This document shows positions 21,098-39,640 of a DNA stretch of 45,834 nt, in pieces (the first letter of the stretch is position 1; every line of letters starts with the position of its first letter). The translations under genes and the position numbers were made by a program. Location of the stretch: NCBI GenBank assembly GCA_050122795.1, contig JASFIG010000001.1, positions 1 through 45,834 of the forward strand. The letters run 5' to 3'. The notes beneath the pieces are model-generated. The model did not search any database. It saw only the letters and a list, made by a program, of their open reading frames with translations, and was not told the origin of the DNA. Source of the DNA: Desulfobacterales bacterium (lineage in GTDB: Bacteria > Desulfobacterota > Desulfobacteria > Desulfobacterales > JAHEIW01).

Positions 21098-21185
21098 CCG
21101 GGTTTGAATTCAATAAGTAATGTCGAATCGAATACTTAGTTCAATTGAAGAATAAAAGCCAATTCGCCTCATTCATCAATCTTAG

Positions 21186-21221
21186 AAAAATTGCGAAATA
21201 TTATTTGAATATTTTCGAAAT
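21186..21221 (-). promoter_or_regulatory. Candidate enhancer (UAS) for the 21082 promoter
   Basis: The minus strand reads TTTCGAAAATATTCAAATAATATTTCGCAATTTTT. The outer CG cores are ~22 bp apart. The nearest core is ~98 bp from the -24 GG. Confidence 0.45.
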
Positions 21222-21413
21222 CCATCATTCACATGATTTAATCAAAACGTCTCAAGCCAATAGCCGGCATGTCAGATGGTATATTTCAATGATGGCATGT
21301 ATAGGAGAAATGAGAGCGATTTTCCAAAGTTAGACACATTATCATATTTGAGAATCCAAAATGGACCCTTTTATACACGGGTCCAAAGTCTGTGCAGAAA
21401 CCTATTATTTCCT

Positions 21414-21429
21414 TGGTATAGCTGTTGCA
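21414..21429 (+). promoter_or_regulatory. Weaker sigma54-like promoter candidate upstream of the 87-aa ORF
   Basis: TGGTATAGCTGTTGCA has correct GG/GC spacing and a canonical TTGCA -12 box, but T replaces C at position 4. It lies 144 nt upstream of ATG 21573. Confidence 0.35.
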
Positions 21430-21572
21430 ACCACCCAAATGTGGAAGCCAGTATGATTCCGAATTAGCGAAACACGGAGTCGAGAAAATGAAAATACCGA
21501 TCCCCAAAGAGGCAATAAAAAAAATTTTAGTAGAATTAAATCAGATTATCCGGAAATATAGGAGGTAGTGAT

Positions 21573-21836
21573 ATGTATGCATTAATTTATGACGAATTCG
21601 ATCCAGCAAAGCGCGAAAAGGAAGTCATTTCTGTCCACAAGACCAGAGAGACTGCCGAAAAGGCTTTGCAGAAACGGCAGCGTAAGCTGGGCAAAAGGGT
21701 CTGGCAATGCCACACCCGGATCGTGTGGATCTACGACCCGGTTCACAAAGGAGATATCGTTACACCCGACACATTCGATACATGGGCACCCGGTGAGACA
21801 ATTCCAGAAGGAGATCGAGTACCGGATGGGGACTAA
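21573..21836 (+). CDS. Hypothetical 87-aa protein
   Basis: AGGAGG RBS 7 nt upstream. I recognised no family. Confidence 0.5.
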   Translation: MYALIYDEFDPAKREKEVISVHKTRETAEKALQKRQRKLGKRVWQCHTRIVWIYDPVHKGDIVTPDTFDTWAPGETIPEGDRVPDGD

Positions 21837-21878
21837 AAGGGATTTTAGATGGGGGTGCTATTATGGGTTTCTGTTTTT

Positions 21879-23186
21879 CTAAGCGCCATAAACGGCCACA
21901 TCTTTTAGATCATCCTGCAGATATTCGCGTTCATTTTCACCGAGGATGCCTAAGGCCAAACAGATCAGGGTCCACAGGTGAATGACACCGTAGCCACCGC
22001 CGTAGTGCTCGCTAAGCTCATGAATCTGGGCATGGCAATTGTGACAGCCTGCGATGCAATAATCCGCTTTGGTGTTCTGAATTTGAACGTCCTTTAAGCG
22101 CCCAAATTCCAGCCGCTGTTTTTTGAGGCCGGATTGCAGGAATCCGCCGCCGCCACCGCAGCAGTAATTATTGGAGCGGTTGGGGGTCATATCGATGAAA
22201 TTTTCTTCCCCGACAACGGTTTTGACCACAAAGCGTAGATCTTCGGCAATGGGATCGCCGTAGCTTTTGCGTACGATCTGGCAGGGATCCTGAACCGTAA
22301 ACTTGATTTTTAGATCCTTGTTCCAATCCGAATTGACGTTCAGTTTACCTTCACGGATCCATTGCGCATAATATTCATAGATGTTTTTAACCTCGAATTT
22401 GTGGTCGATGTTGAATTTTTTCAGTCCTGCCAGGACTGAGAAGGTCACGTGACCTCACTCGGTATTTAAAAAAATCTGACAACCAAGGTCATCGGCCTGT
22501 TTGGCGGTGGTGCGCACAATGTGTTCCCAGGCGTCATTGTCAGCCAGAAACATGCAGTAATTTTCGCCGCCCCAGCCTTTGGACCCGTAAGTCCAGTCTG
22601 CTCCCGCCAGGTGCAAAATTTTCCACAGGGGCACCATCTCATCGGGTTCTGTCACGGGCTCTCTGGAATTCTGATTTAAAAAGAAATAGGCGCCTTTTTT
22701 GTCAATCGGTGCCTGCATGTCTTTAAAATCCGGCTGGGCTTCCTGGTATTCTTCTAAGACATCTTCGACCACAAAGGTGAAATCCTCCGGAGATGCCCCC
22801 ATGGCACTGCAGCTGTCATTTCTCAGAGCCATATCGCAGGAGCCCAAAATGCCTTTGGGTCTTTCATCTCGTGGCCTGCTGCCGCGCACATTGTAAATCA
22901 GCTGGGGAATATCGATTTTCATCGGACAGACATAGATGCAGCGCTGGCACATGGTGCACATCCAGGGCCAGTCCGATTTAAGAATTTCATCGTCCAGTCC
23001 CAGAGCGGCCATCCGCAAAAATTTACGCGGATCCATACCCGCCAGACCTGTCGCCGGGCACCCGGACGAGCAGGCCCCGCAGGTCAGGCATAGATTCAGA
23101 TTGCCGCCTTCTGGCAAAAGCTGCATGACCTCGTCCATGAAACGGCTTTTCTTTTTGCTGCCCAGTTTGACAACCTCATCAGACAT
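21879..23186 (-). CDS. Selenocysteine-containing Fe-S oxidoreductase (2x[4Fe-4S] plus CCG domains; HdrD/GlpC/DsrK-like), 435 aa with Sec at TGA 22455-22457
   Basis: ORFs 22455-23186 and 21879-22448 share one frame and are joined by a single TGA (...QIFLNTE-U-GHVTFSVLAGL...). N-terminus CLTCGACSSGCP and CTMCQRCIYVCP. C-terminal CCG domain DPCQIV, NYCCGGGGG, AGCHNCHAQI. A 7-bp hairpin lies 15 nt downstream of the TGA. Confidence 0.75.
22421..22439 (-). promoter_or_regulatory. Candidate SECIS hairpin for the Fe-S oxidoreductase UGA
   Basis: The minus strand reads UCAGUCC-UGGCA-GGACUGA (perfect 7-bp stem, 5-nt loop), starting 15 nt after the UGA. Confidence 0.45.
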
Positions 23187-23352
23187 TTGTGGCCTCCTTG
23201 GTTTGCTTTTTGTCGGTTCAACGAAATTGTACGATATACTCTCATGATTGAAAATAAAGCGGTACTGAAACCGCCTTAAAAAATTTTTGTGTGTGTTACA
23301 AATTGCTGCTTTTGAGGTGAAGATGGTACAGATTTTTCATTGATTATTTTAA

Positions 23353-23368
23353 AGCATGGAGTATGCCA
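23353..23368 (-). promoter_or_regulatory. sigma54 promoter for the Sec-containing Fe-S oxidoreductase gene
   Basis: The minus strand reads TGGCATACTCCATGCT. It lies ~165 nt upstream of the ATG at 23186. Confidence 0.6.
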
Positions 23369-23447
23369 TCGTGAGATTCTTGTGAAAAGCTGTTTAAAAT
23401 TAAATGATTACACTCTGTTTTGTCTTTAATTGGATTTGAAATGTATC

Positions 23448-23483
23448 AAAATTTCGAAATTTTTTTCGCAAAATTTCGAAATT
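23448..23483 (-). promoter_or_regulatory. Tripartite palindromic enhancer (UAS) for the 23353 promoter
   Basis: The minus strand reads TTCGAAATTTTGCGAAAAAAATTTCGAAATTTT. It contains a perfect 16-bp palindrome AAAATTTCGAAATTTT (23448-23463). The cores are ~11 bp apart. The nearest core is ~89 bp from the -24 GG. Confidence 0.55.
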
Positions 23484-23570
23484 ATTTGTTATGGTAGACT
23501 GAAATTTTAGTGTCAAAGCTAACTTCGTCGGCACTGTCCAACTTTAACGGCGTCTAAAAATACAAAAGTT

Positions 23571-26255
23571 GTGAACATGACCATCCGCAAAAAAATGATC
23601 CTGATTCTGCTGGCATGTACGATCGTGCCGATGTGTTTTGTCGGTCTGCTTGGATACTATCATGCCAGGAAAAGTCTGGAATCCCTGAGGATAGAGCAGC
23701 TGAGAAGTATTGCCGACCTCAAGGCCGTGCGGATCAATGATTTTTACGTCGATCAGCAAAGACACATCAAGATGGCGCAGCAACGCCCCACTCTAAAAAA
23801 ATATGCCGCTGTTGCGGCAGAATTTGCGAATGACTTTTCCGGCCCGGCCTATGAAACCATCCAGGATGAACTGGACCAAGCACTGCGCATCTACCAGCCG
23901 CTTTATGATTTCAAAAATGTCATTCTGGCAAACCCTGAGAGTCAAATCGTTTACGTTTTGGAGCGATCTTTAAGCTGGCAAATGCTGGGTCAGGCCCTGC
24001 CGGATTTGTGGCGGGAATCATTTCAGGATGCCCCTGACCGAATCCAACTTTCAGATGTTGTGGCAAGTCAAAACCAGGCCGGCAGATTTTCGATGTTCTT
24101 CCTGGCACCGATCCAATCTGATGGCGGGCAGTTGGTCGGGGTGGCTGTGTTTGAATCCGACATGGCGCCGATTTACGATCTCATTCAAGATGCGACCGGG
24201 TTGGGAAATACCGGCGAAACTTTAATTGCCAGAAAAAATGGCGATCAAGCCCTGTTTCTTAATCCCCTTCGTCATGATCCCGATGCAGCCTTAAAAAGAA
24301 AGATTGACTTTGGAGAAAAACAAGCCATCCCTATTCAAGAGGCCCTCAAAGGCAACAATGGAAGTGGAATATCTGTGGACTACCGCGGGCAGGAAGTTAT
24401 CGCAGCCTGGCGCTATATTCCATCACTGGATTGGGGGATGGTGGCCAAGATCGATATTGCGGAGGCCTTTGAACCCGTTACCGCGCTGCGAGATTTTGTT
24501 CTCATCCTTGGCATTGCAGTCATTGTGCTCAGCATCTTTGTTGCATATATGGTTGCCAAGTCCATTTCTGATCCGATTCAAGCCCTGCAGCAAGGCGTGG
24601 TAGAAGTCGGTCGAGGCAATTTAGGCCACAAAGTCGCAACTGACGCCAAGGATGAAATCGGACAGCTGGGGCGAACATTCGACCAAATGACCGAACAGCT
24701 AAAGGCAGTGACGGCTTCAAGGGATGAATTGGATAGAGAAATAAAAAAACGCAGGAAGGTTGAGAAAGAACTCCAAAAAAGTATGAATGAGGTGGGCGAG
24801 CGGATCAAAGAGCTGAATTGCCTTTTTGAGATATCCCGTCTGGTGGAAAAACGAGAGCTGACTTTAGAGGAAATCCTCCAGGGCCTCGTTGATCTCATTC
24901 CACCGGCCTTTCAGTACCCGGAAATAACCTGTGCCGAAATTATGATAGAAAATCAAAAATTCAGCACCGGTAATTTTGAAAAAACTCAATGGATGCTTAG
25001 CCAACATATTGTAATATTTAAAAATACAGTTGGAACTTTAGCTGTTTATTATCTCGATGAAAGACCGCAAAGTGATGAAGGGCCTTTTTTAGAGGAAGAA
25101 AGAAATTTGGTCAATACGATTGCTGAACGAATTGGACGAATTATAGAGCGTAATCGAGCTCAAACAGCTTTAGTCGAAAGCGAGAAACGCTTTCGGCAAT
25201 TAGTGGAACATTCCTTAACGGGCATATCGATCATTCAAGATGGCCACATCGTTTATCAGAACCCTGAACAGGAAAGGCTACTGGGTCCCTTACCGCGGCC
25301 GATCAAATTTGCAGACACGGACTCTATCCACCCGGACGATGTTGAAAAAGTAAATCAATTTTATCAAAGCATCAGCACAGGCAAGTTGCCCATTGGCGTT
25401 ACGGATTTCAGATTTTATCCATCCGGCGGAAAAATCAGCCACAGCAATATGAAATGGGTCCACTGCCAGGCCAGCCGGATCGAATTTCAGGGAAAAGATG
25501 CGATGTTGGTCAATATGATGGATATGACCAAAACCAAAGAGCTGGAATATCTTTTGACCGTCCAGGATAAGATGGCTTCTTTGGGCCGGGTGGCAGCCGG
25601 GATCGCACATGAAATTCGCAACCCGCTTTCAGGAATCAATATCTATCTAAACACGCTTAAAAAGCTTCACCACCGGGAGGGAACGGAAGAAAAGGTTGAG
25701 CAAATATTGAATCAAATTCAATCGGCTTCTATAAAAATTGAATCCGTAATTCGCAGGGTCATGGATTTCGCCAAACCCGGCGAACCGAAGTTGGAGTTAA
25801 TTGATATTAATGAACCCATCGCAGATGCGATCAACCTCACTGCAGTGACAATGCGTAAAAGTCGCATAAAAATTGAGAAGTCATTAGCAAATGACGTGCC
25901 GCGATCGCATGCTGATAGAAATCTAATCGAAGAGATCGTTTTAAACCTGTTGAACAACGCTGTCGAAGCCATGAAAGGCATGGAAGTGAGTAAAAAGATT
26001 GACATTGCATCGTTTACAGAAGGCGGGCACATTATTATCCAGATCTCTGATTCAGGCCCGGGTGTTCCGCTAGAAATCAGGAATAAAATATTCGACCCGT
26101 ATTTTACCACGAAACACGAAGGTACCGGTATCGGTCTGAGTTTATGTCACCGAATCATCAACGATCATGGTGGAACCTTAACTGTAGCGGACAGCCATTT
26201 AGGGGGAGCGGAGTTTCGGGTCGAAATTCCGATTCAAAAAAAAGCGAACACCTAA
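23571..26255 (+). CDS. Multi-domain sensor histidine kinase (TM, periplasmic double-Cache-like domain, TM, HAMP, GAF-like, PAS, HisKA, HATPase)
   Basis: 894 aa. The start may be GTG 23571 or ATG 23577. TM helices at ~aa 9-30 and ~310-330 flank a ~280-aa periplasmic domain. HAMP (DEIGQLGRTFDQMTEQL). PAS (ESEKRFRQLVEHSLTGISIIQDG). NtrB-type H-box AAGIAHEIRNPLSGI. HATPase motifs LLNNAVEA, DSGPGV, GTGIGLSLC. Confidence 0.85.
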   Translation: MNMTIRKKMILILLACTIVPMCFVGLLGYYHARKSLESLRIEQLRSIADLKAVRINDFYVDQQRHIKMAQQRPTLKKYAAVAAEFANDFSGPAYETIQDELDQALRIYQPLYDFKNVILANPESQIVYVLERSLSWQMLGQALPDLWRESFQDAPDRIQLSDVVASQNQAGRFSMFFLAPIQSDGGQLVGVAVFESDMAPIYDLIQDATGLGNTGETLIARKNGDQALFLNPLRHDPDAALKRKIDFGEKQAIPIQEALKGNNGSGISVDYRGQEVIAAWRYIPSLDWGMVAKIDIAEAFEPVTALRDFVLILGIAVIVLSIFVAYMVAKSISDPIQALQQGVVEVGRGNLGHKVATDAKDEIGQLGRTFDQMTEQLKAVTASRDELDREIKKRRKVEKELQKSMNEVGERIKELNCLFEISRLVEKRELTLEEILQGLVDLIPPAFQYPEITCAEIMIENQKFSTGNFEKTQWMLSQHIVIFKNTVGTLAVYYLDERPQSDEGPFLEEERNLVNTIAERIGRIIERNRAQTALVESEKRFRQLVEHSLTGISIIQDGHIVYQNPEQERLLGPLPRPIKFADTDSIHPDDVEKVNQFYQSISTGKLPIGVTDFRFYPSGGKISHSNMKWVHCQASRIEFQGKDAMLVNMMDMTKTKELEYLLTVQDKMASLGRVAAGIAHEIRNPLSGINIYLNTLKKLHHREGTEEKVEQILNQIQSASIKIESVIRRVMDFAKPGEPKLELIDINEPIADAINLTAVTMRKSRIKIEKSLANDVPRSHADRNLIEEIVLNLLNNAVEAMKGMEVSKKIDIASFTEGGHIIIQISDSGPGVPLEIRNKIFDPYFTTKHEGTGIGLSLCHRIINDHGGTLTVADSHLGGAEFRVEIPIQKKANT

Positions 26256-26282
26256 CCGCTTTCCAAAAACCAGGAGTAAGTG

Positions 26283-27671
26283 ATGATTAAATTTTCTATA
26301 TATGTCATAGATGACGAGCAAACCATACGGGATGGCATCACGATGACCCTTGAGGCCGACTATCGTGTAAAATCTTTTTCTGAGGCGGAACCCGCTATCG
26401 ATTCTTTAGAAGAGGATTCCCCGGATCTGATCTTGCTGGATGTGGGGTTACCGGGGATGGATGGAATTGAGGCCCTCCGTCAAATTAAATCATCACATCC
26501 GGATATTCTGGTCATCATGATCACCGCCTATGAAGCAGTCGATACAGTAATATCGGCTATGAAACTGGGTGCCTACGACTATGTGATCAAGCCGCTTCAT
26601 ATGGACGGATTGGAGGTCACCATACGCAATGCCCTGGATTCCATACGACTTAAAAAGGAAATTCAACAGCTCCAGGAAAAGCATCTCCAAGAAAACATCC
26701 CGTGTTTTATCAGTGAAAGCAATGCCATTCAGGATGTGATGGACTTTGTCCAGATGGTGGCCAAAAGCCCGGACACCCCGGTGCTCATCATGGGTGAAAC
26801 CGGCACCGGCAAAGAACTCATTGCCAGCGCCATTCACTATTATAGCCCGAATTTTAAGGCCCCATTTGCCACCGTGAATTGCGCGGCCATCCCCAAAGAT
26901 CTGATTGAAAGTGAGCTATTTGGCTACGAAAAAGGGGCTTTCAGCGGTGCGGGCGCATCCGGCAAAAAAGGCTTAATCGAAGAATCGGCTAACGGCACCT
27001 TGTTTTTGGATGAAATTGGCGATCTTAGCCTTGAAGCCCAGGCCAAGCTGCTGCGGTTTCTCGAGCTCGGTGAGTTTTACAGAGTCGGAGGAACGAAAAA
27101 AAAGCATATTCAAACCCGTGTGATTTCTGCCACCAACAAGGAACTCAGCCAATTGATCGAGGACGGCCTATTTCGAAAAGACCTGTATTTTAGGCTCGGG
27201 GTGATTAAAGTCAAGGTGCCGTCTTTAAACGAGCGGCCAGACGATATTGGGCCCCTAGCAAAATATTTTCTTCAGGAATTCAGCCATAAGTTTGGTAAAA
27301 AATTTACCGGAATCTCCGCTGATGCCGGAAACGCTTTACTGGCTCACAACTGGACCGGTAACGTGAGAGAATTGAAAAATCTCATGGAGGCGGCGGCCCT
27401 GACGGGCAAAGGACCGGAACTCAAATTAGAGGATCTGGGATTGGAATCTGAAAATCTGTATCGTAAGTCGGCTGCAGCCAGAAATGCGGATGGGCTTTCC
27501 CCTCTGCCTGCTGAAGGTCTTGATTTATCCGAGCGGCTTCAAGCTTTTGAAAGGCACTATATCAAACAGGCCCTTAAAATTGCTAAAGGCAATGAGAGCA
27601 AGGCCGCCAAACTGTTAAATATGAATCATCATACATTTCGTTATCGCAGGAAAAAATTGTTTGCTGAATAA
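26283..27671 (+). CDS. sigma54-dependent response regulator (NtrC family: REC, AAA+, Fis-type HTH)
   Basis: REC motifs IYVIDDE and DLILLDVGLPGMDG. AAA+ motifs GETGTGKE, GAFSGA (a GAFTGA variant), LFLDEIG, RVISATN. HTH GNESKAAKLLNMNHHTFRYRRKKL. CAGGAG RBS. Confidence 0.9.
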   Translation: MIKFSIYVIDDEQTIRDGITMTLEADYRVKSFSEAEPAIDSLEEDSPDLILLDVGLPGMDGIEALRQIKSSHPDILVIMITAYEAVDTVISAMKLGAYDYVIKPLHMDGLEVTIRNALDSIRLKKEIQQLQEKHLQENIPCFISESNAIQDVMDFVQMVAKSPDTPVLIMGETGTGKELIASAIHYYSPNFKAPFATVNCAAIPKDLIESELFGYEKGAFSGAGASGKKGLIEESANGTLFLDEIGDLSLEAQAKLLRFLELGEFYRVGGTKKKHIQTRVISATNKELSQLIEDGLFRKDLYFRLGVIKVKVPSLNERPDDIGPLAKYFLQEFSHKFGKKFTGISADAGNALLAHNWTGNVRELKNLMEAAALTGKGPELKLEDLGLESENLYRKSAAARNADGLSPLPAEGLDLSERLQAFERHYIKQALKIAKGNESKAAKLLNMNHHTFRYRRKKLFAE

Positions 27672-27777
27672 CGATATCAATAATCATCATCTTTTTTGTT
27701 GTCTTATTTCCGATATCTTTGGTTTCTTTCATATACCTCTCATATCCCCAAGTCGATCTATAATTTTCCTCAATCGC

Positions 27778-27814
27778 TTTTTTTGAAATCTTAAAAAAGT
27801 CATCTTCGAAATTC
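27778..27814 (+). promoter_or_regulatory. Candidate enhancer (UAS) for the 27906 promoter
   Basis: TTTTTTTGAAATCTTAAAAAAGTCATCTTCGAAATTC. This is a degenerate version of the tripartite element. The TTCGAAATT core at 27805-27813 lies ~100 bp from the -24 GG. Confidence 0.4.
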
Positions 27815-27905
27815 TTCTAATTTGTAATCTTTTATCAATTTATCCGAAGAGACAAAAAAAAAATAAGACAATAAATTTATTACAAATTTTATCATAGCTG
27901 TTTAT

Positions 27906-27921
27906 TGGCATGTTATATGCT
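27906..27921 (+). promoter_or_regulatory. sigma54 promoter upstream of the universal stress protein gene
   Basis: TGGCATGTTATATGCT has canonical GG/GC spacing. It lies 116 nt upstream of ATG 28037. Confidence 0.55.
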
Positions 27922-28036
27922 TCTAAAAAATTAGAGCGACTCTTTTAAAGGTCTATCTAATATATGGCAAAGGAAAAGCGGAGAGAACTCTGGAAAAAAT
28001 TATATCTTAAAAAGGAAACCAGAACCGAATAACCAA

Positions 28037-28549
28037 ATGGCTTCTCACCTTCATAGAATGCTTTATGCTACGGATCTTTCCGCAGCCTCAATAGATTCAT
28101 TTCAGTACGTCCTTAATTATGCCGCCAAAAACAATTCAGCCTTGATCGTATTTCACGTAGTCAATCAAAGATCGATTACCTGTTCGAAGATACTGGCCAC
28201 TTTCTACAATGAGGGTGACGAGCACAAAATTCGACAAGAAAAAGTCAACGCTGCATTAAAGTGTATGAAAACTCTTCTGGAGCTGCAACGTCAAAAAGAG
28301 CTTCATAATCCTTTCGAGCACGTGAATACGATTGAATACCTGGTTGTTCATTATGGAAGGATCGCACAAGAAATTGTTGAAAAAGCCCATCAGTGGGGAT
28401 GCGATTTTATTATCCTGGGGCCCCGCAGAAAGCGGTTATTCGGACGGTTCCTACTTCCCAGTATATCGCGAAAAGTGATCCGTAGAACCGATAAGCCGGT
28501 GCATGTCGTAAAGAGGTCAAAAAAGAAAAGCGATGATTTGCGCCATTAA
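28037..28549 (+). CDS. Universal stress protein (UspA family)
   Basis: 170 aa. Usp-like pattern MLYATDLS...ALIVFHVV...DFIILGPRRK...VIRRTDKPVHVV. Basic C-terminal tail. Confidence 0.75.
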   Translation: MASHLHRMLYATDLSAASIDSFQYVLNYAAKNNSALIVFHVVNQRSITCSKILATFYNEGDEHKIRQEKVNAALKCMKTLLELQRQKELHNPFEHVNTIEYLVVHYGRIAQEIVEKAHQWGCDFIILGPRRKRLFGRFLLPSISRKVIRRTDKPVHVVKRSKKKSDDLRH

Positions 28550-28554
28550 AAACC

Positions 28555-28603
28555 TTCTTTTCGAAATTTTCCTACCTAAGCCTTCGCAATTTTTCAAAAT
28601 TTC
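28555..28603 (+). promoter_or_regulatory. Candidate enhancer (UAS) for the 28683 promoter
   Basis: TTCTTTTCGAAATTTTCCTACCTAAGCCTTCGCAATTTTTCAAAATTTC. The TTCGAAATTTT and TTCGCAATTTTT cores are 23 bp apart. The nearer one is ~99 bp from the -24 GG. Confidence 0.45.
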
Positions 28604-28682
28604 ATTTCCCAAGTTCTCCAATACAAACGGGTAGAAATTCTAACCATACAGAATCATGTTACTTTTTAGCACATGATCTTCA

Positions 28683-28698
28683 TGGCACATTTTATGCT
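28683..28698 (+). promoter_or_regulatory. sigma54 promoter upstream of the PFOR gene
   Basis: TGGCACATTTTATGCT, 40 nt upstream of ATG 28738. Confidence 0.6.
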
Positions 28699-28713
28699 CC
28701 TAAATAACTCTAA

Positions 28714-32280
<3,567 letters not shown>

Positions 32281-32463
32281 TATGAAAATTTGGGTGGTCC
32301 GTATTGGCGGTTGGATTCTATCCGTTGTTTATTGGTTATGCGGAATTAAATACTGGGATTTATTCGGTGGCCGCCAAAATGATGATCGGTCAAATCACAG
32401 AATCCGCAAATTAAATGATAATCGTTTAAGATAGCCATACCATTCAAAAGGAGAAGATCCTTT

Positions 32464-32709
32464 ATGGCGTTTAAATTTCAAATTGACGAAGATCGGTGTA
32501 AGGGATGCGGGCTGTGTGTAAGTGTATGCCCTAAAAAAGTTTTGGAAATTTCCGAAAATGTGAACGCTAGGGGTTACTTTCCGGTCTATCAGGCGCGACC
32601 GGAAGATTGTAATTTCTGCGCGCTGTGCTGCGTGATGTGTCCGGATGTAGCGATCGAAATTATTGAAATCGCGGAAGAGGCGCCTTCAAAAACAAAAGAA
32701 GCTGCTTGA
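32464..32709 (+). CDS. 2x[4Fe-4S] ferredoxin-type delta subunit of 2-oxoacid:ferredoxin oxidoreductase
   Basis: 81 aa. CKGCGLCVSVCP and CNFCALCCVMCP. AAGGAG RBS. Confidence 0.8.
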   Translation: MAFKFQIDEDRCKGCGLCVSVCPKKVLEISENVNARGYFPVYQARPEDCNFCALCCVMCPDVAIEIIEIAEEAPSKTKEAA

Positions 32710-32790
32710 AACCAGAAACAGGTAAAATAGAATACGTTATAATGGATCAATACAGCGAAGGGACTTTGATTTACGTTAATGGGGGATAGA

Positions 32791-33861
32791 ATGGGCAAAG
32801 TATTAATGAAGGGTAACGAAGCCATCGGTGAGGCCGCCATCCGGGCAGGCTGCTCGAACTATTTCGCTTATCCCATCACGCCACAATCAGAGGTGGCCGA
32901 ATACTTATCCCGGCGTCTGCCGGAAATCAACGGCGTGTTTTTACAAGGTGAAAGTGAAGTGGCTGTATCCTATATGATCTTTGGTGCTGCTGCCTGTGGC
33001 GAAAGGGTTTTTACCACCTCATCGAGTCCGGGCATCAGTCTAATGAGTGAAGGCATCAGTTATATCACGTCGGCCGAGTGCCCGGCGGTATTTGTCAATA
33101 TTATGCGGGGCGGACCGGGATTGGGTGGCATTCTTCCTTCCCAGGCCGATTATTTTCAGGCAACCAAAGGCGGCGGTCATGGCGACTATAAGCTGCTGGT
33201 TATGGCGCCGGCCAGTGTCCAGGAAGCTGTTGAGATGGTCATGCAAGCCTTTCCGCTGGCTGAAAAATATCGCAACCCGGTGATGATCCTGGGGGATGGT
33301 CTGATCGGCCAGATGATGGAGCCGGTGGAGTTTCCCGAGCACCTCAAGAGTGAACCGACCAACAAAGACAGCTGGGCCACCAACGGGATGGCCACCCGCA
33401 AGAGCACCAAACGCAATCTGGTTAAAACACTTTATTTAAATCCTGAGGAGCTCAATGATCATAATCTTAAATTAAAAGCCAAATATGAAAAGATGGCATG
33501 TGAGGAGATTCGTTACGAAACCTATAACGTGGAAAGAGATTATCAGGTACTTATTGTGAGTTACGGTACCATGAGCCGGGTGTGCCGAACAGCCGTTGAT
33601 AATTTGCAGGAAGAAGGGCTTGAAGTCGGGATGATCAGGCCCCAGCATCTTTTTCCTTTCCCGCAGGAGGCCATTTTACAGGCCGCCTGCAAAAAGAGCT
33701 GCGACGCCGTTTTGGGTGTTGAGATGTCGATGGGGCAAATGGTTGAGGATATCGAGCGCAGCGTTAAAGGAAAGCGCCCGGTGCGCTGGTATGGAAAATG
33801 CGGCGGTGACGTTCCGACACCTGAGGAGGTCATGGAGGAGATCCGTAAATTGGTCAAATAG
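32791..33861 (+). CDS. 2-oxoacid:ferredoxin oxidoreductase alpha subunit
   Basis: Start chosen at ATG 32791 (MGKVLMKGNEAIGEAAIRAGC...YPITPQSE), a typical Kor/Vor/PorA N-terminus. Confidence 0.85.
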   Translation: MGKVLMKGNEAIGEAAIRAGCSNYFAYPITPQSEVAEYLSRRLPEINGVFLQGESEVAVSYMIFGAAACGERVFTTSSSPGISLMSEGISYITSAECPAVFVNIMRGGPGLGGILPSQADYFQATKGGGHGDYKLLVMAPASVQEAVEMVMQAFPLAEKYRNPVMILGDGLIGQMMEPVEFPEHLKSEPTNKDSWATNGMATRKSTKRNLVKTLYLNPEELNDHNLKLKAKYEKMACEEIRYETYNVERDYQVLIVSYGTMSRVCRTAVDNLQEEGLEVGMIRPQHLFPFPQEAILQAACKKSCDAVLGVEMSMGQMVEDIERSVKGKRPVRWYGKCGGDVPTPEEVMEEIRKLVK

Positions 33862-33973
33862 TTAAATGGTCGACGGGTTGAATTAATTTAAAGTTTAACC
33901 ATCTGTCCTTTTTATATCAAACGAATTAACCAGTTGACCATTCAACCGATTGACTGAACATAGGAGAAAATAA

Positions 33974-34741
33974 ATGGGAAAAACATATCAGAAACCCAAA
34001 GCGCTCTCCCATCGGATGACCCATTACTGTCCGGGCTGCACCCATGGTGTGGCGCACCGGTTGGTCGCTGAAGTTATTGACGAGTTGAATATCCGGGACC
34101 GCACGGTGGGTATCGCCCCGGTGGGCTGCGCCGTTTTAGCCTATGAGTATTTTACGTTTGATTTTCAGGAAGCTGCCCACGGCCGGGCCCCGGCCATGGC
34201 TACCGGCATCAAACGGGTTCGACCCGATCTGATGGTGTTTACCTATCAGGGGGATGGGGATCTGGCGAGCATTGGAACTTCAGAAATTATCCATGCGGCC
34301 AACCGGGGTGAAAAGTTTACGGTCATCTTTATCAATAATGCAGTTTATGGAATGACCGGCGGACAGATGGCGCCGACGACATTGCCGCAGCAAAAAACAA
34401 CAACGTCACCTCAGGGGCGAAATGTAGACGAGGTGGGGATGCCCATGAAAATGGCTGAAGTGCTTGCTGCCCTGGAAACACCGGGATATATCGCCCGGCA
34501 ATCGCTCATCAAACCTAAATACATTGTCAAAGCAAAGAAAGCCATTAAGAAGGCCTTTACCTGCCAGGTGCAGCATCGAAGTTTTAGCTTCGTCGAATTG
34601 ATCAGCACCTGTCCGACCAACTGGGGAATGATACCGGTAGAAGCAGTCAAATGGGCCGAAGAGAACATGCATGCGTATTATCCATTGGGCGAGTACAAGA
34701 CGCCTGAGAAAGCGACTGAACCGCAAAAGCGTGCTGCTTAG
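33974..34741 (+). CDS. 2-oxoacid:ferredoxin oxidoreductase beta (TPP-binding) subunit
   Basis: 255 aa. YCPGCTHG, and GDGD...NNAVYGMTGGQ (TPP-binding motif). Confidence 0.85.
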   Translation: MGKTYQKPKALSHRMTHYCPGCTHGVAHRLVAEVIDELNIRDRTVGIAPVGCAVLAYEYFTFDFQEAAHGRAPAMATGIKRVRPDLMVFTYQGDGDLASIGTSEIIHAANRGEKFTVIFINNAVYGMTGGQMAPTTLPQQKTTTSPQGRNVDEVGMPMKMAEVLAALETPGYIARQSLIKPKYIVKAKKAIKKAFTCQVQHRSFSFVELISTCPTNWGMIPVEAVKWAEENMHAYYPLGEYKTPEKATEPQKRAA

Positions 34742-34816
34742 CGCAACTGAAAGAAGTTGTTCTTTTTACAGCCGTAATGAACGATCCGCTATCAGCTCAA
34801 ATGGGGAGGCAATCCG

Positions 34817-35347
34817 ATGCAAAGTGAAGTGAAATTTGCCGGATTTGGTGGCCAGGGCATCATGTTAATCGGCAAGATCCTTGCGCATGCAGAAATGCAG
34901 GCCGGATCCGAAGTCGTTTGGATCCCGTCATACGGTCCAGAAATGCGTGGCGGAACGGCCTATTGCACAGTGGTCTCCAGTGACCGGCCCATCGGCTCAC
35001 CGATTATTCAAAATCCACAGCATCTGGTGGCCATGAACCGCCCCTCTCTTGAAAAATTTGCACCCGCGGTGAAACCCGGGGGCGTCATATTTATCAACAG
35101 CTCATTAATCTCCATTCATTCCGGGCGCAACGATGTGGATGAATTTAGCGTCCCGATCATCGGCATTGCCAAGGATTTGGGGAATGTCAAAGTTGCCAAT
35201 ATCGTGGCGCTGGGTGCCTTTGTTGCCCGCAGTAAAATTGTCGATTTCGATTTGCTAAAGGATTCTGTCAGGGATGAATTTTCGGGTAAAAGAAAGCTGA
35301 TACCCATCAATCTGGAGGCTTTAGAGAAAGGCCGCCAGGCGGCTTAG
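34817..35347 (+). CDS. 2-oxoacid:ferredoxin oxidoreductase gamma subunit
   Basis: 176 aa. FAGFGGQGIMLIGKILA...YGPEMRGGTA, a typical gamma-subunit motif. Confidence 0.85.
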   Translation: MQSEVKFAGFGGQGIMLIGKILAHAEMQAGSEVVWIPSYGPEMRGGTAYCTVVSSDRPIGSPIIQNPQHLVAMNRPSLEKFAPAVKPGGVIFINSSLISIHSGRNDVDEFSVPIIGIAKDLGNVKVANIVALGAFVARSKIVDFDLLKDSVRDEFSGKRKLIPINLEALEKGRQAA

Positions 35348-35365
35348 AAACAAAAGAAATAAGGG

Positions 35366-35632
35366 ATGGTAAAGATGAAATTATCGGTGTGTGGTAAAGG
35401 TGGCAGCGGTAAAAATAGCGTCGTATGCCTTCTGTCGGCTGCGGCTCAAGCGAAAGGATTGAAGACGCTTGTGATCGATTCTGATGAATCCAACTCCGGG
35501 CTCTTTCGAATGCTGGGATTTAGCAAACCCCCGATTCCGCTGATGAGCCTGGTAGGAGGAAAAACAGGGATTAAAGATAAAATGAACCAGACGTCTATCC
35601 TATCTGAAAAGGATATTACGCTGGAACAATGA
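35366..35632 (+). pseudogene. Truncated CooC/MinD-like P-loop ATPase (N-terminal 88 aa only, degenerate Walker A)
   Basis: KLSVCGKGGSGKNSVVCLLSAAAQAKGLKTLVIDSDESNSG resembles the first third of CooC-type ATPases. Asn replaces the Walker A Thr/Ser. The ORF stops where the AT-rich regulatory region begins. Confidence 0.45.
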
Positions 35633-35763
35633 AACCGGTTTTTATCATTCCATTGCCCTAAGAAGAAACGGGCAACACTTATATTTCTACTGACCCCATT
35701 ATTGATTTCATGCTGATCCTGCCAGGGTTTTAAATCATCCATCAGTCGTGGAACTCCTGTTCG

Positions 35764-35796
35764 TTCGAAATTTTGCGAAAAGATTTCGAAATTTTT
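35764..35796 (+). promoter_or_regulatory. Tripartite palindromic enhancer (UAS) for the 35884 promoter
   Basis: TTCGAAATTTTGCGAAAAGATTTCGAAATTTTT. In promoter-relative orientation it is almost identical to the element at 23448-23483. The nearest core is ~98 bp from the -24 GG. Confidence 0.55.
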
Positions 35797-35883
35797 CAAA
35801 TAATTTAGCGCAACTTGGGCTATTCGAAAATTTTTATAAGGATAAGTATATGAATTTATACAACTAAGTTAGATTTCATCTAA

Positions 35884-35899
35884 TGGCATAATTCATGCA
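35884..35899 (+). promoter_or_regulatory. sigma54 promoter for the GAF-kinase / activator operon
   Basis: TGGCATAATTCATGCA. Its -12 box overlaps the first in-frame ATG (35895) of the kinase ORF. Confidence 0.5.
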
Positions 35900-37226
35900 C
35901 AATGATCAATTGCTGAGAAAAATGAATACACTACACACCCAACTGTCTACCGATTCGGAAATCAGTATCGAAACCTTTTACCGGGTTTTCCGGGACATTA
36001 GCACCCTGGTGCACACCGGCAAAAGTTTAAAAGAGGTCCTGGATCGGGTTGTCTGGAAAGCGACGGATCTGCTCACCGCCAAAGGTGCTTTGCTCAGAAT
36101 CCGCAACCTGGAAACACAGCAGTTTGCGGTTGTGGCTGCATTCGGTCTGGGTGAAAGATATCTGAATAAAGGACCCGTTACGAGCGAAAAAATTATTACA
36201 GATGAAATCCGACAAAACCGGGTTTTGATCATCGATGATATCTGGAAAGCCCCCCGGGTCGAATACCCGCAGGCGGCCTGGGATGAAGGCATCCGCATGA
36301 TTTTAGACATCCCCCTGACCGTTGCAGATCAAATCATCGGGCTTTTAAGAATCTATCTGCCCGAGACCAGAAATTTTTCAGAAGATGAACTTGATTTTAT
36401 GGTTTCCATCGGCGAGCAATGCGCCTGTGCGATCAACAAGGCCCGTCTGATCGAAAACCAGAAAGCCCGTTATGACCACCTGGCCATTCAAACCGAGAAG
36501 ATGTCGGCCCTGGGACGCATGGCAGCAGGGATTGCGCATGAAATCAATAATCCGCTGGCGGGTATTTTACTTTTCAGCTCAAATTTGAGAAAAAAAGTGC
36601 CCGCCAAGGGTGACCTGAAAGAAGGGCTGGATGTCATTGTTCGAGAGACGGTGCGCTGCAAAACCATTATCCAGGAGCTTTTGGAATTCTCTCGTGATCG
36701 GGAGCCACGCAAGGAAATGGCGAATCCGAACGCCATCCTGGAAAAGGCCTTGAAAATTTTGGAAAACGAATTTCGCCTGCATCACATTCAGATCGAAAAA
36801 CATCTTGCCGACGAAATGCCTGAAACACTGCTGGATGAAAACCAGATCGAACAGGTCTTTGTGAATCTGTTGCTGAATGCGGTGCAAGCCATTGAAGAAA
36901 AAGGCATCATCACCGTAACCAGCAGCAACGATAAAGGCCGCGAGAAGGCCCTTATCGAAATTACGGATACCGGCAACGGTATTCCTGCGGAGAATTTAGC
37001 CAAAATTTTTGAGCCTTTTTACTCCACCAAACCCAAAGGTACCGGTCTGGGGCTGGCGGTCAGCTATGCTATTATCAAAAACCACCAGGGCGACATCCAT
37101 GCTTTCAGCCAATCCGGACAGGGTGCCCGCCTCGTAATAGAGCTTCCGATTTTAGCCCAATCCGTGCAGCCGCAAAATCGCTGCCGGGACAACAATAATG
37201 CACCAAACAGCGGAGAGGCCTGTTAA
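35895..37226 (+). CDS. Cytoplasmic sensor histidine kinase (GAF, HisKA, HATPase; NtrB/AtoS-like)
   Basis: 443-aa ORF. The true start is possibly ATG 35922, if the overlapping sigma54 promoter is used. GAF-like region aa ~35-185. H-box AAGIAHEINNPLAGI. HATPase motifs LLLNAVQA, DTGNGI, GTGLGLAVS. Confidence 0.8.
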   Translation: MHNDQLLRKMNTLHTQLSTDSEISIETFYRVFRDISTLVHTGKSLKEVLDRVVWKATDLLTAKGALLRIRNLETQQFAVVAAFGLGERYLNKGPVTSEKIITDEIRQNRVLIIDDIWKAPRVEYPQAAWDEGIRMILDIPLTVADQIIGLLRIYLPETRNFSEDELDFMVSIGEQCACAINKARLIENQKARYDHLAIQTEKMSALGRMAAGIAHEINNPLAGILLFSSNLRKKVPAKGDLKEGLDVIVRETVRCKTIIQELLEFSRDREPRKEMANPNAILEKALKILENEFRLHHIQIEKHLADEMPETLLDENQIEQVFVNLLLNAVQAIEEKGIITVTSSNDKGREKALIEITDTGNGIPAENLAKIFEPFYSTKPKGTGLGLAVSYAIIKNHQGDIHAFSQSGQGARLVIELPILAQSVQPQNRCRDNNNAPNSGEAC

Positions 37227-38653
37227 TGCACGGGAGCCACATTTTGATTATTGATGATGAGCCGGTTGTTTGCGACGGATGCCGGGCCGTGCTTTCAGAA
37301 AAGTACGCGGTAGACGCCTGTTTGACCGGCAAAGAAGGTCTCGATGCGTTTTTAAAAGGACAATATGATTTGGCCCTTCTGGATATGAAACTGCCCGATA
37401 CTGACGGGATGGACATTTTGCGGATCATCCGTCAGGATAAGCCCGGTGCTTATGTGATCGTAATGACCGGCTATTCGACGGTTAAAAATGCGGTTCAGGC
37501 CATGAAATCAGGCGCTTTTGACTACCTGGCCAAGCCATTTACTGACGATGAGCTTCTGTTGGCCGTTGAAAAAGTGATCGAGCACAAACACCTCAAAGAA
37601 GAAAATCTTGCCCTGCGCAATCAGCTATATGAGCAATTTGATTTCAGCAACATTATCGGCGAAGATCGCGCACTTTTGAAAGTCTTTGACGGAATCCGCA
37701 AAGTTGCACCCACAGACAGTACCGTTCTGCTGCAGGGGGAGAGCGGAACGGGAAAAGAGCTTTTTGCGCGGGCCATTCATACCCGCAGCCCCAGAGCTGG
37801 CCGACGTTTTGTTGCCCTGGATTGCAGCTGTCTTTCTCCCAGCGTGCTGGAAAGCGAGCTGTTCGGGCATGTCAAAGGCGCCTTTACGGGCGCCATTCAG
37901 GACAAGGCCGGTATCTTTGAAGTGGCTAACGAGGGGACGCTTTTCCTGGACGAGATTTCCAACCTGACCCTTGAGGTTCAGGGCAAACTGCTGCGCGTAA
38001 TGGACACCCATGAATATAAACCGGTAGGCGCCAGCACCTTCAAAAAAACCGATGTCCGCATCATCGCGGCCACCAACCGCGATCTGAAAATCATGGTGGC
38101 TGAAAATACGTTCAGGGAAGATCTACTTTACCGCCTGAATGTTTTCCCCGTATATCTTCCGCCGCTGCGCGAGCGCAAAGACGATATTCCCAGCCTGGCG
38201 TATCATTTTCTGCGTTTTTTTTGCCGCAAGACCGGTAAGAAAATAGAAGGGTTTAGCGACGATGCCTTGCAAGTACTGGTCAATCAGCATTGGCCGGGAA
38301 ACGTGCGCCAGCTTAAAAATGTGATTGAACGCCTGGTGATTATGGCGGATCAGCGACTGCTCGACGGGCCCCAGCTTTTAGAGCATTTGCACCCCCGAAG
38401 ATCAAATGGTGGTAACAACGCCATCCCGGAAACCATCAAAGAACTCAAGGCTGTGAAGAAACACCTGCTCGACGTGCGCTATGGTGACCTGGAGAAAGCT
38501 TTCCTCGTCAAAGCACTCAAGGCCTGCGACGGCAACATCACGCGTGCGGCTGCCAGGGTGGGAATCAAAAGACCCAACTTCCACACCCTGATGAAGAAGC
38601 ATAATCTGTCCGTCAAAGATTTGAGCCGCATGTCCGACCCGGCGGGACATTAA
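37226..38653 (+). CDS. sigma54-dependent response regulator (NtrC/AtoC family)
   Basis: 475 aa. The start overlaps the kinase stop (TAATG). REC motifs ILIIDDE and DLALLDMKLPDTDG. AAA+ motifs GESGTGKE, GAFTGA, LFLDEIS, RIIAATN. HTH GNITRAAARVGIKRPNFHTLMKKH. Confidence 0.9.
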   Translation: MHGSHILIIDDEPVVCDGCRAVLSEKYAVDACLTGKEGLDAFLKGQYDLALLDMKLPDTDGMDILRIIRQDKPGAYVIVMTGYSTVKNAVQAMKSGAFDYLAKPFTDDELLLAVEKVIEHKHLKEENLALRNQLYEQFDFSNIIGEDRALLKVFDGIRKVAPTDSTVLLQGESGTGKELFARAIHTRSPRAGRRFVALDCSCLSPSVLESELFGHVKGAFTGAIQDKAGIFEVANEGTLFLDEISNLTLEVQGKLLRVMDTHEYKPVGASTFKKTDVRIIAATNRDLKIMVAENTFREDLLYRLNVFPVYLPPLRERKDDIPSLAYHFLRFFCRKTGKKIEGFSDDALQVLVNQHWPGNVRQLKNVIERLVIMADQRLLDGPQLLEHLHPRRSNGGNNAIPETIKELKAVKKHLLDVRYGDLEKAFLVKALKACDGNITRAAARVGIKRPNFHTLMKKHNLSVKDLSRMSDPAGH

Positions 38654-38693: not shown

Positions 38694-38879
38694 GATAACC
38701 AAATGAATTTTTTCGCAATAATCGCAATTGCATGGCGTTGAGGTGTATAGCGCTTCATACGATTGGCCCGATCGGCAGCAGGGTTTCACGGTGATGCCGT
38801 CGATCGCAATATATCGATATGATTTGATAAAACCAGCAGCCCGATTGTTTTTCGAAGCGACCCCGAACATGGCACACAA

Positions 38880-38895
38880 TTTGCCACACAAGGGG
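38880..38895 (+). promoter_or_regulatory. Canonical sigma54 promoter for the REC-hdrA-mvhD-fdhA operon
   Basis: TGGCACACAATTTGCC (TGGCAC-N5-TTGC), 55 nt upstream of ATG 38951. Confidence 0.6.
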
Positions 38896-38950: not shown

Positions 38951-39640
38951 ATGAACGCCATCCAGGAATTGAATATGACCGAACACGGTATTCCGCCTCA
39001 CATTCTGGTGATGGAGGATGAGGCCAGCGTGGCGCAGGGGCTGCAAATGGTGCTGTCGGAAGAGGGCTACGATGTCGATTTGGCCATGACCGGCAGTGGT
39101 GCGCTGAACGCCTTTCACCAAAAGGGCTTCGACCTGCTGGTTGCCGATCTGCGCCTGCCGGACATCGACGGAATGGAGGTCATCCGGCAGGTCAAGGAAA
39201 CCAAGCCCGACACGGAGGTGATTGTCATCACCGGTTACTCCAGTATTGATTCCGCGGTGGAAGCCATGAAGCTGGGCGCCTTTGAGTACCTTCCAAAACC
39301 CTTTACCGATGACCAGTTCAAACAGGCTGTCGACGGCGCTTTGAAGGAGAAAAAGGCGGTTTCAGCCGAAAAACCGGCAGTCGATTTTGAAACCGAGGAA
39401 GGCCAGCTGATTCAAAAGCGGGAGGTGATCCGGGCGCTCGATCGAACCGCGGAAGACCCGGATTTCTGGCTCGATCTAATGGAAAAAGGCTCCGCGGCGC
39501 TGGCAGATTATCAGCTTTCCGGCAGGGCCAAGTATGCCATCAGCCAGGGTGACCTCAACTGGATAAACGAAAATGTGGGCGAGCTCACCCAGAAGCAGTT
39601 GATGTTTATATACAAGCGACTGGAGCGGGAAGCCTGGTAA
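38951..39640 (+). CDS. Response-regulator receiver protein with an uncharacterised ~90-aa C-terminal domain
   Basis: 229 aa with an AGGAGG RBS. REC motifs ILVMEDE, DLLVADLRLPDIDG, VIVITGY, EYLPKPF. I did not recognise the C-terminal part (EDPDFWLDLMEKGSAALADYQLSGRAKYAISQGDLNWINENVGELTQKQLMFIYKRLEREAW) as a DNA-binding domain. Confidence 0.8.
   Translation: MNAIQELNMTEHGIPPHILVMEDEASVAQGLQMVLSEEGYDVDLAMTGSGALNAFHQKGFDLLVADLRLPDIDGMEVIRQVKETKPDTEVIVITGYSSIDSAVEAMKLGAFEYLPKPFTDDQFKQAVDGALKEKKAVSAEKPAVDFETEEGQLIQKREVIRALDRTAEDPDFWLDLMEKGSAALADYQLSGRAKYAISQGDLNWINENVGELTQKQLMFIYKRLEREAW

Follow-up and report, generated by a model that had tools for sequence, protein, structure and literature searches.

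An AT-rich element of two phased palindromes about 100 bp upstream of five sigma-54 promoters in a Desulfobacterales contig, a predicted enhancer for an NtrC-family response regulator

The question raised by this locus is why five sigma-54-type promoters, facing in both directions within a single stretch of a Desulfobacterales genome, are preceded by almost the same AT-rich sequence at almost the same distance. The stretch, hereafter the window, comprises 45,834 nucleotides of contig JASFIG010000001.1 (assembly GCA_050122795.1), and an earlier reading of its letters by a model (the sequence-only reading) had proposed that a near-identical, helically phased enhancer lies upstream of each of the five promoters. 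As judged from sequence comparison, the repeated element, TTCGAAATTTT, is confirmed as a conserved upstream activator-binding site (upstream activating sequence, UAS) situated about 100 bp before the five promoters; it is a new example of a textbook mechanism and not a new type of element. It is probably the enhancer of a sigma-54 regulon governed by a two-component pair encoded in the window itself, that is, a sensor histidine kinase (HK1) and an NtrC-family response regulator presumed to act as an enhancer-binding protein (EBP1).

At each promoter the element is composed of two tandem 16-bp imperfect palindromes whose starts lie 21-23 bp apart, together providing four half-sites; the consensus forms are approximately TTCGAAATTTTGCGAA for the distal and TTCGAAATTTTTCTAA for the proximal unit, and the half-site cores are 10 bp apart inside one unit. 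The units and their promoters are listed below, distances being counted from the start of the unit to the T of TGGCA in the promoter.

21204-21219, minus strand: distal unit of UAS-A, TTCGAAAATATTCAAA, differing from the consensus at 3 positions, 122 nt upstream of P1
21182-21197, minus strand: proximal unit of UAS-A, TTCGCAATTTTTCTAA, 1 mismatch, 23.0 bits, 100 nt upstream of P1
21082-21097, minus strand: sigma-54 promoter P1, TGGCATATTTCATGCA, predicted to drive the Orp-like operon 21001-18161
23465-23480, minus strand: distal unit of UAS-B, TTCGAAATTTTGCGAA, identical to the distal consensus, 112 nt upstream of P2
23443-23458, minus strand: proximal unit of UAS-B, TTCGAAATTTTGATAC, promoter-side half degraded, 90 nt upstream of P2
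23353-23368, minus strand: sigma-54 promoter P2, TGGCATACTCCATGCT, predicted to drive the HdrD-like Fer4+CCG gene 23186-21879
27782-27797, plus strand: distal unit of UAS-C, TTTGAAATCTTAAAAA, weak (5 mismatches), 124 nt upstream of P3
27805-27820, plus strand: proximal unit of UAS-C, TTCGAAATTCTTCTAA, 1 mismatch, 24.4 bits, 101 nt upstream of P3
27906-27921, plus strand: sigma-54 promoter P3, TGGCATGTTATATGCT, predicted to drive the universal stress protein (Usp) gene 28037-28549
28560-28575, plus strand: distal unit of UAS-D, TTCGAAATTTTCCTAC, 2 mismatches, 123 nt upstream of P4
28583-28598, plus strand: proximal unit of UAS-D, TTCGCAATTTTTCAAA, 2 mismatches, 22.0 bits, 100 nt upstream of P4
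28683-28698, plus strand: sigma-54 promoter P4, TGGCACATTTTATGCT, predicted to drive the pyruvate:ferredoxin oxidoreductase (PFOR) gene 28738-32280
35764-35779, plus strand: distal unit of UAS-E, TTCGAAATTTTGCGAA, identical to the distal consensus, 120 nt upstream of P5
35785-35800, plus strand: proximal unit of UAS-E, TTCGAAATTTTTCAAA, 1 mismatch, 19.8 bits, 99 nt upstream of P5
35884-35899, plus strand: sigma-54 promoter P5, TGGCATAATTCATGCA, predicted to drive the genes for a second kinase, HK2 (about 35922-37226), and a second regulator, EBP2

All five elements that the sequence-only reading placed upstream of sigma-54 promoters are thus present, with proximal units starting 90-101 nt and distal units 112-124 nt upstream of TGGCA; every copy lies in the range expected of a UAS (roughly 80-150 bp upstream of a -24/-12 promoter of the form GG-N10-GC), and the two inverted repeats are phased as sites for dimers of a helix-turn-helix (HTH) protein. 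The distances given earlier, 98-100 and 89 bp from the CG core to the GG, agree with the 99-101 and 90 nt measured here from unit start to T, and the spacing of 21-23 bp between outer cores, about two helical turns, is recovered as the spacing of the unit starts. The two best 33-mers have the sequences reported for them, although the first runs from 23480, and not from 23483, to 23448; they are a 1-nt indel apart, which gives a unit spacing of 22 in UAS-B and 21 in UAS-E. The third core noticed in between does exist but belongs to the distal unit, of which it forms the right half; the element also has a fourth half-site (TCTAA or TCAAA) that had been missed. Conservation matched to promoter orientation needs a similar qualification, since the TTTCGAAA core is itself a palindrome, for which such a match is trivial; the orientation signal therefore comes from the proximal unit, which is asymmetric, with a distal half beginning TTCG and a promoter-side half ending TCTAA, and which points at the promoter in four of the five copies. 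The objection of triviality, true for the core, was accordingly dismissed for the composite element. Between UAS-E and P5, about 60 nt before the promoter, an additional TTCGAAAATTT core at 35823-35833 (plus strand) stands outside the conserved two-unit architecture.

Could such an element arise from AT-richness alone? Allowing at most one mismatch, TTCGAAATTTT matches the window 14 times against 3.0 expected, a number reached in none of 100 shuffles, and the matches are clustered upstream of the five promoters. A 21-nt weight matrix, built solely from sites of other genomes with an AT-rich background and applied at a cut-off of at least 10 bits, provides an independent test because no window site was in its training set; it gave 13 matches, 12 of them inside the five elements, compared with 0.86 in dinucleotide shuffles of the whole window and 1.16 (maximum 5) in shuffles within 200-nt blocks that retain local AT-richness, which bears out the earlier contention that base composition does not account for the element. 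The best matrix match points at the promoter in four of the five elements, with scores of 22-24 bits, and 19.8 bits in UAS-E. As for the promoters, TGGYAY-N5-WTGCW is found six times in the window against 0.64 expected, five of these being P1-P5, all of which read TGGCAY-N5-ATGCW. The window has two further sigma-54-like promoters, at 21414-21429 and 38870-38885, which lack the TTCGAAA element.

For the comparison with related genomes, loci were retrieved with EBP1 as the query, one genome per species, yielding 69 loci with orthologues of 88% to about 52% identity, nearly all from metagenome-assembled genomes (MAGs) of Desulfobacterales/Desulfobacteraceae. Together with the loci retrieved with EBP2 (see below), they contain 47 unique promoters carrying a proximal unit, gathered by searching for units on the strand of the promoter only. 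At 45 of these 47, the distance from the start of the proximal unit to TGGCA is 97-104 nt (mode 100), and at the other two it is 89 or 91 nt; the spacing between units is 21 (3 cases), 22 (13) or 23 (27). Information content is high over TTTCGAAATTTTTCTAAATT and the promoter and near zero in the spacer, and CG dinucleotides are conserved at specific positions within AT-rich surroundings. Because the sequence of the spacer is not conserved while its length is kept, the geometry is considered to be under selection and the copies not to be recent duplicates. In 938 kb of DNA, consisting of the window and the 69 loci, 60 of the 73 units with at most two mismatches to TTCGAAATTTTTCTAA lie at the canonical distance and in the promoter's orientation, a placement for which the chance fraction is 0.14%. 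The element is kept across loci whose EBP1 orthologues span 88% to about 57% identity. Comparison of orthologous loci, which the sequence-only reading had suggested, thus finds the element, its orientation and the spacing of about 100 nt recurring, and the geometry attributed to an oligomerising enhancer-binding protein gains support from the 47 related promoters and from the 60 canonical placements.

These data bear directly on another possibility, a dispersed AT-rich repeat without function or a single cassette that was recently duplicated to give all five promoter regions. In its favour, the intergenic DNA of this locus is AT-rich, and chance alone repeats short words of that composition, with roughly three matches expected; the block shuffles, however, produce about one matrix match where 13 are observed, the spacers are unrelated among copies and species although the spacing is kept, and the element persists over the wide range of EBP1 divergence just described. 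A repeat resembling REP or MITE sequences was rejected on the fixed promoter-relative position in 60 of the 73 units and on their unrelated flanks; a generic AT-rich repeat with no link to -24/-12 sites, an outcome that the sequence-only reading had itself envisaged, is contradicted by the same count. We regard this explanation as very improbable.

The rigidity of the spacing extends to its apparent exception. In P2, which was described as having one turn less, the spacer (23398-23442) has a clean deletion of 10 bp immediately after the proximal unit when compared with the orthologous promoters of three related loci (L006, L008 and L061), where the distance is 100 nt and the TCTAA half is intact; this deletion accounts for both the shortening from 100 to 90 nt and the degraded TCTAA half of the window copy, and the loss is, as judged from the alignment, one that keeps the helical phase. 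The promoters themselves show a bias at the -12 element, which reads ATGC and not the usual TTGC: the base in question is A in 39 and T in 2 of 52 element-linked promoters, whereas T occupies it in 64 of the 105 remaining sigma-54-like sites of those loci. It looks like a regulon-specific promoter flavour. The promoters may also carry a site for integration host factor (IHF), for which three candidates were found in the window.

21126-21138, minus strand: candidate IHF site 41 nt upstream of P1, differing from WATCAANNNNTTR at 1 position
23398-23410: analogous IHF-like site at P2, likewise about 41 nt upstream
27869-27881: analogous IHF-like site at P3, likewise about 41 nt upstream

With a threshold of at most one mismatch, 18 of the 52 promoters have an IHF-like site (YAANNNNTTGATW) whose start lies 46-35 nt before TGGCA, in most cases at -42/-41, compared with 1.0 in shuffled spacers. 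A fixed bend at this position would explain the rigid spacing. Bends between a UAS and its promoter, whether by IHF or intrinsic, are frequent and not obligatory.

Which protein, then, would bind the element? The window encodes two NtrC-family regulators, the second of which is followed by a promoter and a palindrome of its own.

23571-26255, plus strand: HK1, sensor histidine kinase (dCache-HAMP-PAS-HisKA-HATPase), presumed partner of EBP1
26280-27671, plus strand: EBP1, NtrC-family response regulator (REC, sigma-54 AAA+ with GAFSGA, HTH_8), proposed binder
37226-38653, plus strand: EBP2, second NtrC-family response regulator, a predicted target of the element via P5 and probably not its binder
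38745-38760, plus strand: proposed EBP2 site, a palindrome of different sequence (GTATAGCGCTTCATAC) located 125 nt before the promoter at 38870
38870-38885, plus strand: seventh sigma-54 promoter, TGGCACACAATTTGCC, upstream of a response-regulator (RR) gene (38951-39640) and an HdrA-like gene

EBP1 is composed of REC, Sigma54_activat (with the GAFSGA motif, a variant listed among functional Desulfovibrio vulgaris activators), AAA_lid_14 and HTH_8 domains, and the solved structures closest to it are activators of the NtrC1/NtrC4 type; EBP2 likewise has the REC, sigma-54 AAA+ and HTH_8 arrangement. The two share 37% identity and differ in their HTH and recognition helices. In EBP1 orthologues the HTH (LLNMNHHTFRYR) is almost invariant, its segment GNESKAAKLLNMNHHTFRYRRKKL being nearly so down to 52% overall identity, and the orthologue is encoded after a kinase gene in nearly all related loci. 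Where the orthologue has at least 60% identity, a unit of at least 12 bits is present in 35 of 40 loci, a co-occurrence across genomes that comes from a sample biased by having been fetched with EBP1; in 25 of the 40, no more than 400 nt separate the EBP1 stop codon from a unit downstream of it. On these grounds we have reasonably good confidence that EBP1 binds the element.

EBP2 could instead be the binder, alone or with EBP1, activating its own operon through UAS-E and controlling the other four promoters. UAS-E indeed lies directly upstream of the HK2-EBP2 operon, and positive autoregulation is common among enhancer-binding proteins. A metagenome scan with EBP2 returned 80 loci, the best 46 of which were inspected; about 40 are syntenic (HK2-EBP2-RR-HdrA) with EBP2 orthologues of at least 60% identity. 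Among these the element occurs upstream of HK2 only in the closest relatives (L071, L072 and L104) and in one further locus (L083), and most orthologues of 60-70% identity are without it there; many have instead a separate sigma-54 promoter between EBP2 and the response-regulator gene, preceded by a palindrome GTATR-N7-ATAC that is conserved in about 15 EBP2 loci and is probably the binding site of EBP2. Conversely, true EBP2 orthologues are nearly absent from the EBP1 loci carrying the element, only L022 having one (63% identity), and the HTH of EBP2 is unlike the invariant one of EBP1. EBP2 was thus rejected on comparative grounds as the binder of the element, and the explanation is considered unlikely.

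Several points weigh against the assignment of the element to EBP1. The related loci were retrieved with EBP1 itself, so that co-localisation is partly built into the sample; the matrix behind the count of 35 in 40 was trained on the same relatives; and the counts cover loci, mostly from MAGs, rather than whole genomes. In five of the 40 close EBP1 loci the available DNA contains no unit, and most orthologues of 52-58% identity (Desulfobacula, Desulfobacter) are accompanied only by weaker variants, such as TTAGAAAANNTTCTAA, despite having the same HTH. Within the window, the distal unit of UAS-C and the proximal unit of UAS-B match poorly, and the IHF-like site is present at only three of the five promoters (P1-P3), with none at P4 or P5.

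In the NtrC paradigm, an activator occupies two dimer sites on one face of the DNA, assembles an AAA+ ring, contacts the closed complex by looping and opens the promoter at the expense of ATP. By analogy, each palindrome TTCGAAATTTTKCKAA would bind one dimer of EBP1 through its Fis-type HTH, and the unit starts being 21-23 bp apart, about two helical turns, would place both dimers on one face. Phosphorylation by HK1 would then let the bound dimers assemble the AAA+ ring, which would contact the sigma-54 closed complex about 100 bp downstream by looping of the DNA, aided at many promoters by the IHF-like bend about 41 nt upstream of TGGCA, before ATP hydrolysis opens the promoter. In the predicted circuit, HK1 signals to EBP1, which would activate the genes for Usp, PFOR and a 2-oxoacid:ferredoxin oxidoreductase (OFOR), a putatively selenocysteine-containing HdrD-like protein, the Orp-like operon and the HK2-EBP2 operon, the last having presumably been placed under EBP1 control in this lineage. 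EBP2 would in turn activate the RR-HdrA-like operon through GTATR-N7-ATAC and the promoter at 38870, the whole forming a cascade from one enhancer-binding protein to another.

It is worth comparing this arrangement with sigma-54 systems already described. At the glnAp2 promoter of enteric bacteria, the enhancer bound by NtrC (NR-I) consists of two dimer inverted repeats of about 16-17 bp, on the same face and roughly 100-140 bp upstream. The present system resembles it in the REC-AAA+-Fis-HTH response regulator, with oligomerisation and looping to sigma-54 that are known there and proposed here, and in that the regulator's own operon adjoins a bound site (predicted here); it differs in the site, TTCGAAATTTTKCKAA as compared with TGCACC-N5-GGTGCA, in the site spacing of 21-23 bp and not about 32 bp, and in its targets, which are redox and Fe-S enzymes instead of nitrogen assimilation. 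The best equivalog of EBP1 is NtrC (TIGR01818), with 386 bits against a cut-off of 558.6, and both EBP1 and EBP2 fall below the cut-off of every named equivalog of this class in NCBIfam (NtrC, AtoC, ZraR, GlrR, NtrX and others).

Three systems of D. vulgaris are also comparable. LurR/LurS (DVU3023/DVU3022), an NtrC-type two-component system, acts on the por-lactate operon (PMC6456213, PMC3333781); as here, an NtrC-type regulator is found beside a sigma-54-dependent PFOR gene in a sulfate reducer, and several 16-bp sites conserved across an order lie upstream of the promoter. The LurR motif, GTCCGCTTTTTCAGAC, is positioned at variable distances (-389, -350 and -250 from the start codon) (PMC6456213), in contrast to the different sequence and rigid 100-nt position of the present element. 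Membership in the LurR regulon was rejected, GTCCGCTTTTTCAGAC not being found upstream of PFOR here, where TTCGAAATTTTCCTAC and TTCGCAATTTTTCAAA are located instead; genes for lactate permease, ldh, pta and ack were not present in the window regions examined. DVU0539/DVU0946 is an NtrC-type regulator adjoining a kinase and a Usp gene (DVU0540, DVU0542) and targeting the por operon (PMC3333781), and its targets overlap with the Usp and PFOR genes here; its 18-bp motif, TGCAAA-N6-TTTGCA (PMC3333781, Table S7), differs from TTCGAAATTTTKCKAA in half-site and spacing, on which basis this regulon too was rejected. OrpR (DVU2106) is a one-component PAS/Fe-S regulator recognizing the 17-bp motif GGGCGYRTTTTGCGCCC, and its regulon contains only the two orp operons (PMC8359166, PMC3897727). 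The likeness lies in sigma-54 operons for Nitro_FeMo-Co-domain proteins and MinD/Mrp-type Fe-S ATPases, in the palindromic UAS and in IHF, which is required there and for which a candidate site is seen here; the present regulator, however, is the response regulator of a two-component pair, its motif is not the same and its predicted regulon is wider. The OrpR regulon was rejected because EBP1 has a REC and no PAS domain and the motif is not GGGCGYRTTTTGCGCCC. In the supplementary site tables of Desulfovibrionales motifs for such regulators (Kazakov et al. 2015), TTCGAAA and TTTCGAA are absent, and TTCGCAA and TTGCGAA occur solely inside unrelated motifs; in the full-text literature, the motif words turned up nothing beyond unrelated primers and a NagC site of E. 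coli. The system thus functionally resembles LurR-por, DVU0539-Usp/por and OrpR-orp and is a member of none of them.

A binder that is no enhancer-binding protein also deserves consideration: the element, being AT-rich and phased, might be recognized by a nucleoid-associated protein that prefers such DNA and shapes promoter architecture, or by a global redox or energy regulator, which the redox and Fe-S targets could suit, the link to EBP1 having so far been drawn from sequence. Against this, the element is found almost solely at a fixed distance upstream of sigma-54 promoters, which need an enhancer-binding protein; upstream of these promoters no second conserved motif was seen; CG dinucleotides are retained at specific positions of an otherwise AT-rich sequence; the element is unlike the LurR, DVU0539/0946 and OrpR motifs; and it co-localises with one regulator family whose HTH is invariant. 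Such a binder has, in our estimation, a small chance of being the correct one, and the enhancer bound by EBP1 remains the preferred explanation.

The genes predicted to be controlled by the element in the window are as follows.

21001-18161, minus strand: operon of P1, encoding a Nitro_FeMo-Co/DUF5320 protein, two MinD/Fer4 ATPases and a Nitro_FeMo-Co protein (an Orp-like set)
21879-23186, minus strand: target of P2, HdrD-like Fer4+CCG protein with an in-frame TGA
28037-28549, plus strand: target of P3, Usp
28738-32280, plus strand: target of P4, PFOR (equivalog TIGR02176, 1904 bits)
about 35922-37226, plus strand: target of P5, HK2 (GAF histidine kinase), followed by EBP2

P4 probably also drives the four-subunit OFOR encoded at 32464-35347. 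The in-frame TGA of the P2 target, at 22455-22457 on the minus strand in the context ACC GAG TGA GGT, is present too in the L006 orthologue, and a hairpin, CAGTCCTGGCAGGACTG, is located about 20 nt downstream; the two probably represent a selenocysteine codon with its selenocysteine insertion sequence (SECIS) element in an HdrD/DsrK-like protein. On one metagenome contig (L071, WOR8_10003147) the order is HK1-EBP1-Usp-HK2-EBP2-RR-HdrA with no PFOR/OFOR genes in between; judging from this order, the 7-kb PFOR/OFOR block with its own element, when the corresponding window region (27671-35900) is compared, appears to be either an insertion in the window lineage or a loss in that contig. Just upstream of UAS-E, an 88-aa open reading frame (ORF; 35366-35632, plus strand) matches only the N-terminal P-loop of MinD/CooC-type ATPases, a full 258-aa version of which is found in L007, and may be a truncated gene remnant.

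In the related loci, the first gene after an element-bearing promoter encodes a single-domain receiver protein at 18 promoters, typically just after EBP1, followed by Usp (6), histidine kinase (4), Prismane/carbon monoxide dehydrogenase (CODH)-family protein (3) and GNAT acetyltransferase (3). First genes at one or two promoters encode HdrD-like, double Usp, OFOR-beta, MinD/CooC-like, Mrp, NifU_N and CBS-ACT proteins and an orthologue of an 87-aa ORF of the window (21573-21836). The theme of the predicted regulon is low-potential ferredoxin-linked redox enzymes together with Fe-S maturation. We tentatively propose, as a reading with slightly less than an even chance of being right, that EBP1 and its element constitute an uncharacterised sigma-54 regulon, widespread in Desulfobacterales, with an unusually hard-wired promoter class (the enhancer at 100 ± 3 nt or one turn less, a fixed IHF-like site and ATGC in place of TTGC), which would govern low-potential ferredoxin-linked enzymes (PFOR, OFOR, CODH-family and HdrD-like) and Fe-S maturation proteins (Orp-like, MinD/Mrp and NifU) and would have captured a second enhancer-binding protein operon to form a cascade.

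This pairing of regulator, site and regulon is testable and concerns uncultured sulfate-reducing Desulfobacterales; to our knowledge, there is no such regulatory map for this group, whereas one is available for D. vulgaris. On this reading, the central low-potential enzymes of carbon and redox metabolism and the genes for Fe-S maturation appear to share control by a single sensor kinase. The motif with a promoter at a fixed 100 nt is specific enough for annotating the regulon in metagenomes. The rigid 100-nt geometry and the ATGC flavour, apparent from the alignments, are, with the predicted cascade, notable secondary features; the spacing, the phase kept through the 10-bp deletion at P2 and the -12 element offer a natural data set on enhancer-promoter geometry in sigma-54 activation.

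As for the expression of HK1-EBP1 itself, a scan of 23380-23600 for a sigma-70 consensus promoter of HK1 found nothing, and inspection of the alignment by eye revealed an extended -10-like motif, TGTTATGGT, at 23487-23495 (plus strand), a few nucleotides past UAS-B and facing HK1, which is conserved in L005, L006 (TGTTATAGT), L008 and L061. HK1-EBP1 may be transcribed from this motif as a sigma-70 promoter, whose -35 region would overlap the element; EBP1 might therefore repress its own operon.

A last observation concerns the sixth sigma-54-like promoter of the window, TGGTATAGCTGTTGCA, at 21414-21429 (plus strand), which precedes the 87-aa ORF, a sequence with no match in Pfam or NCBIfam. 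At -100 this promoter lacks an element of its own; UAS-A, which faces the opposite way, is 195-232 nt upstream of it. The L008 orthologue of this ORF is preceded by a canonical element (98 and 120 nt), and comparable divergent promoter pairs flanking a single element are seen in L013, L014 and L016.

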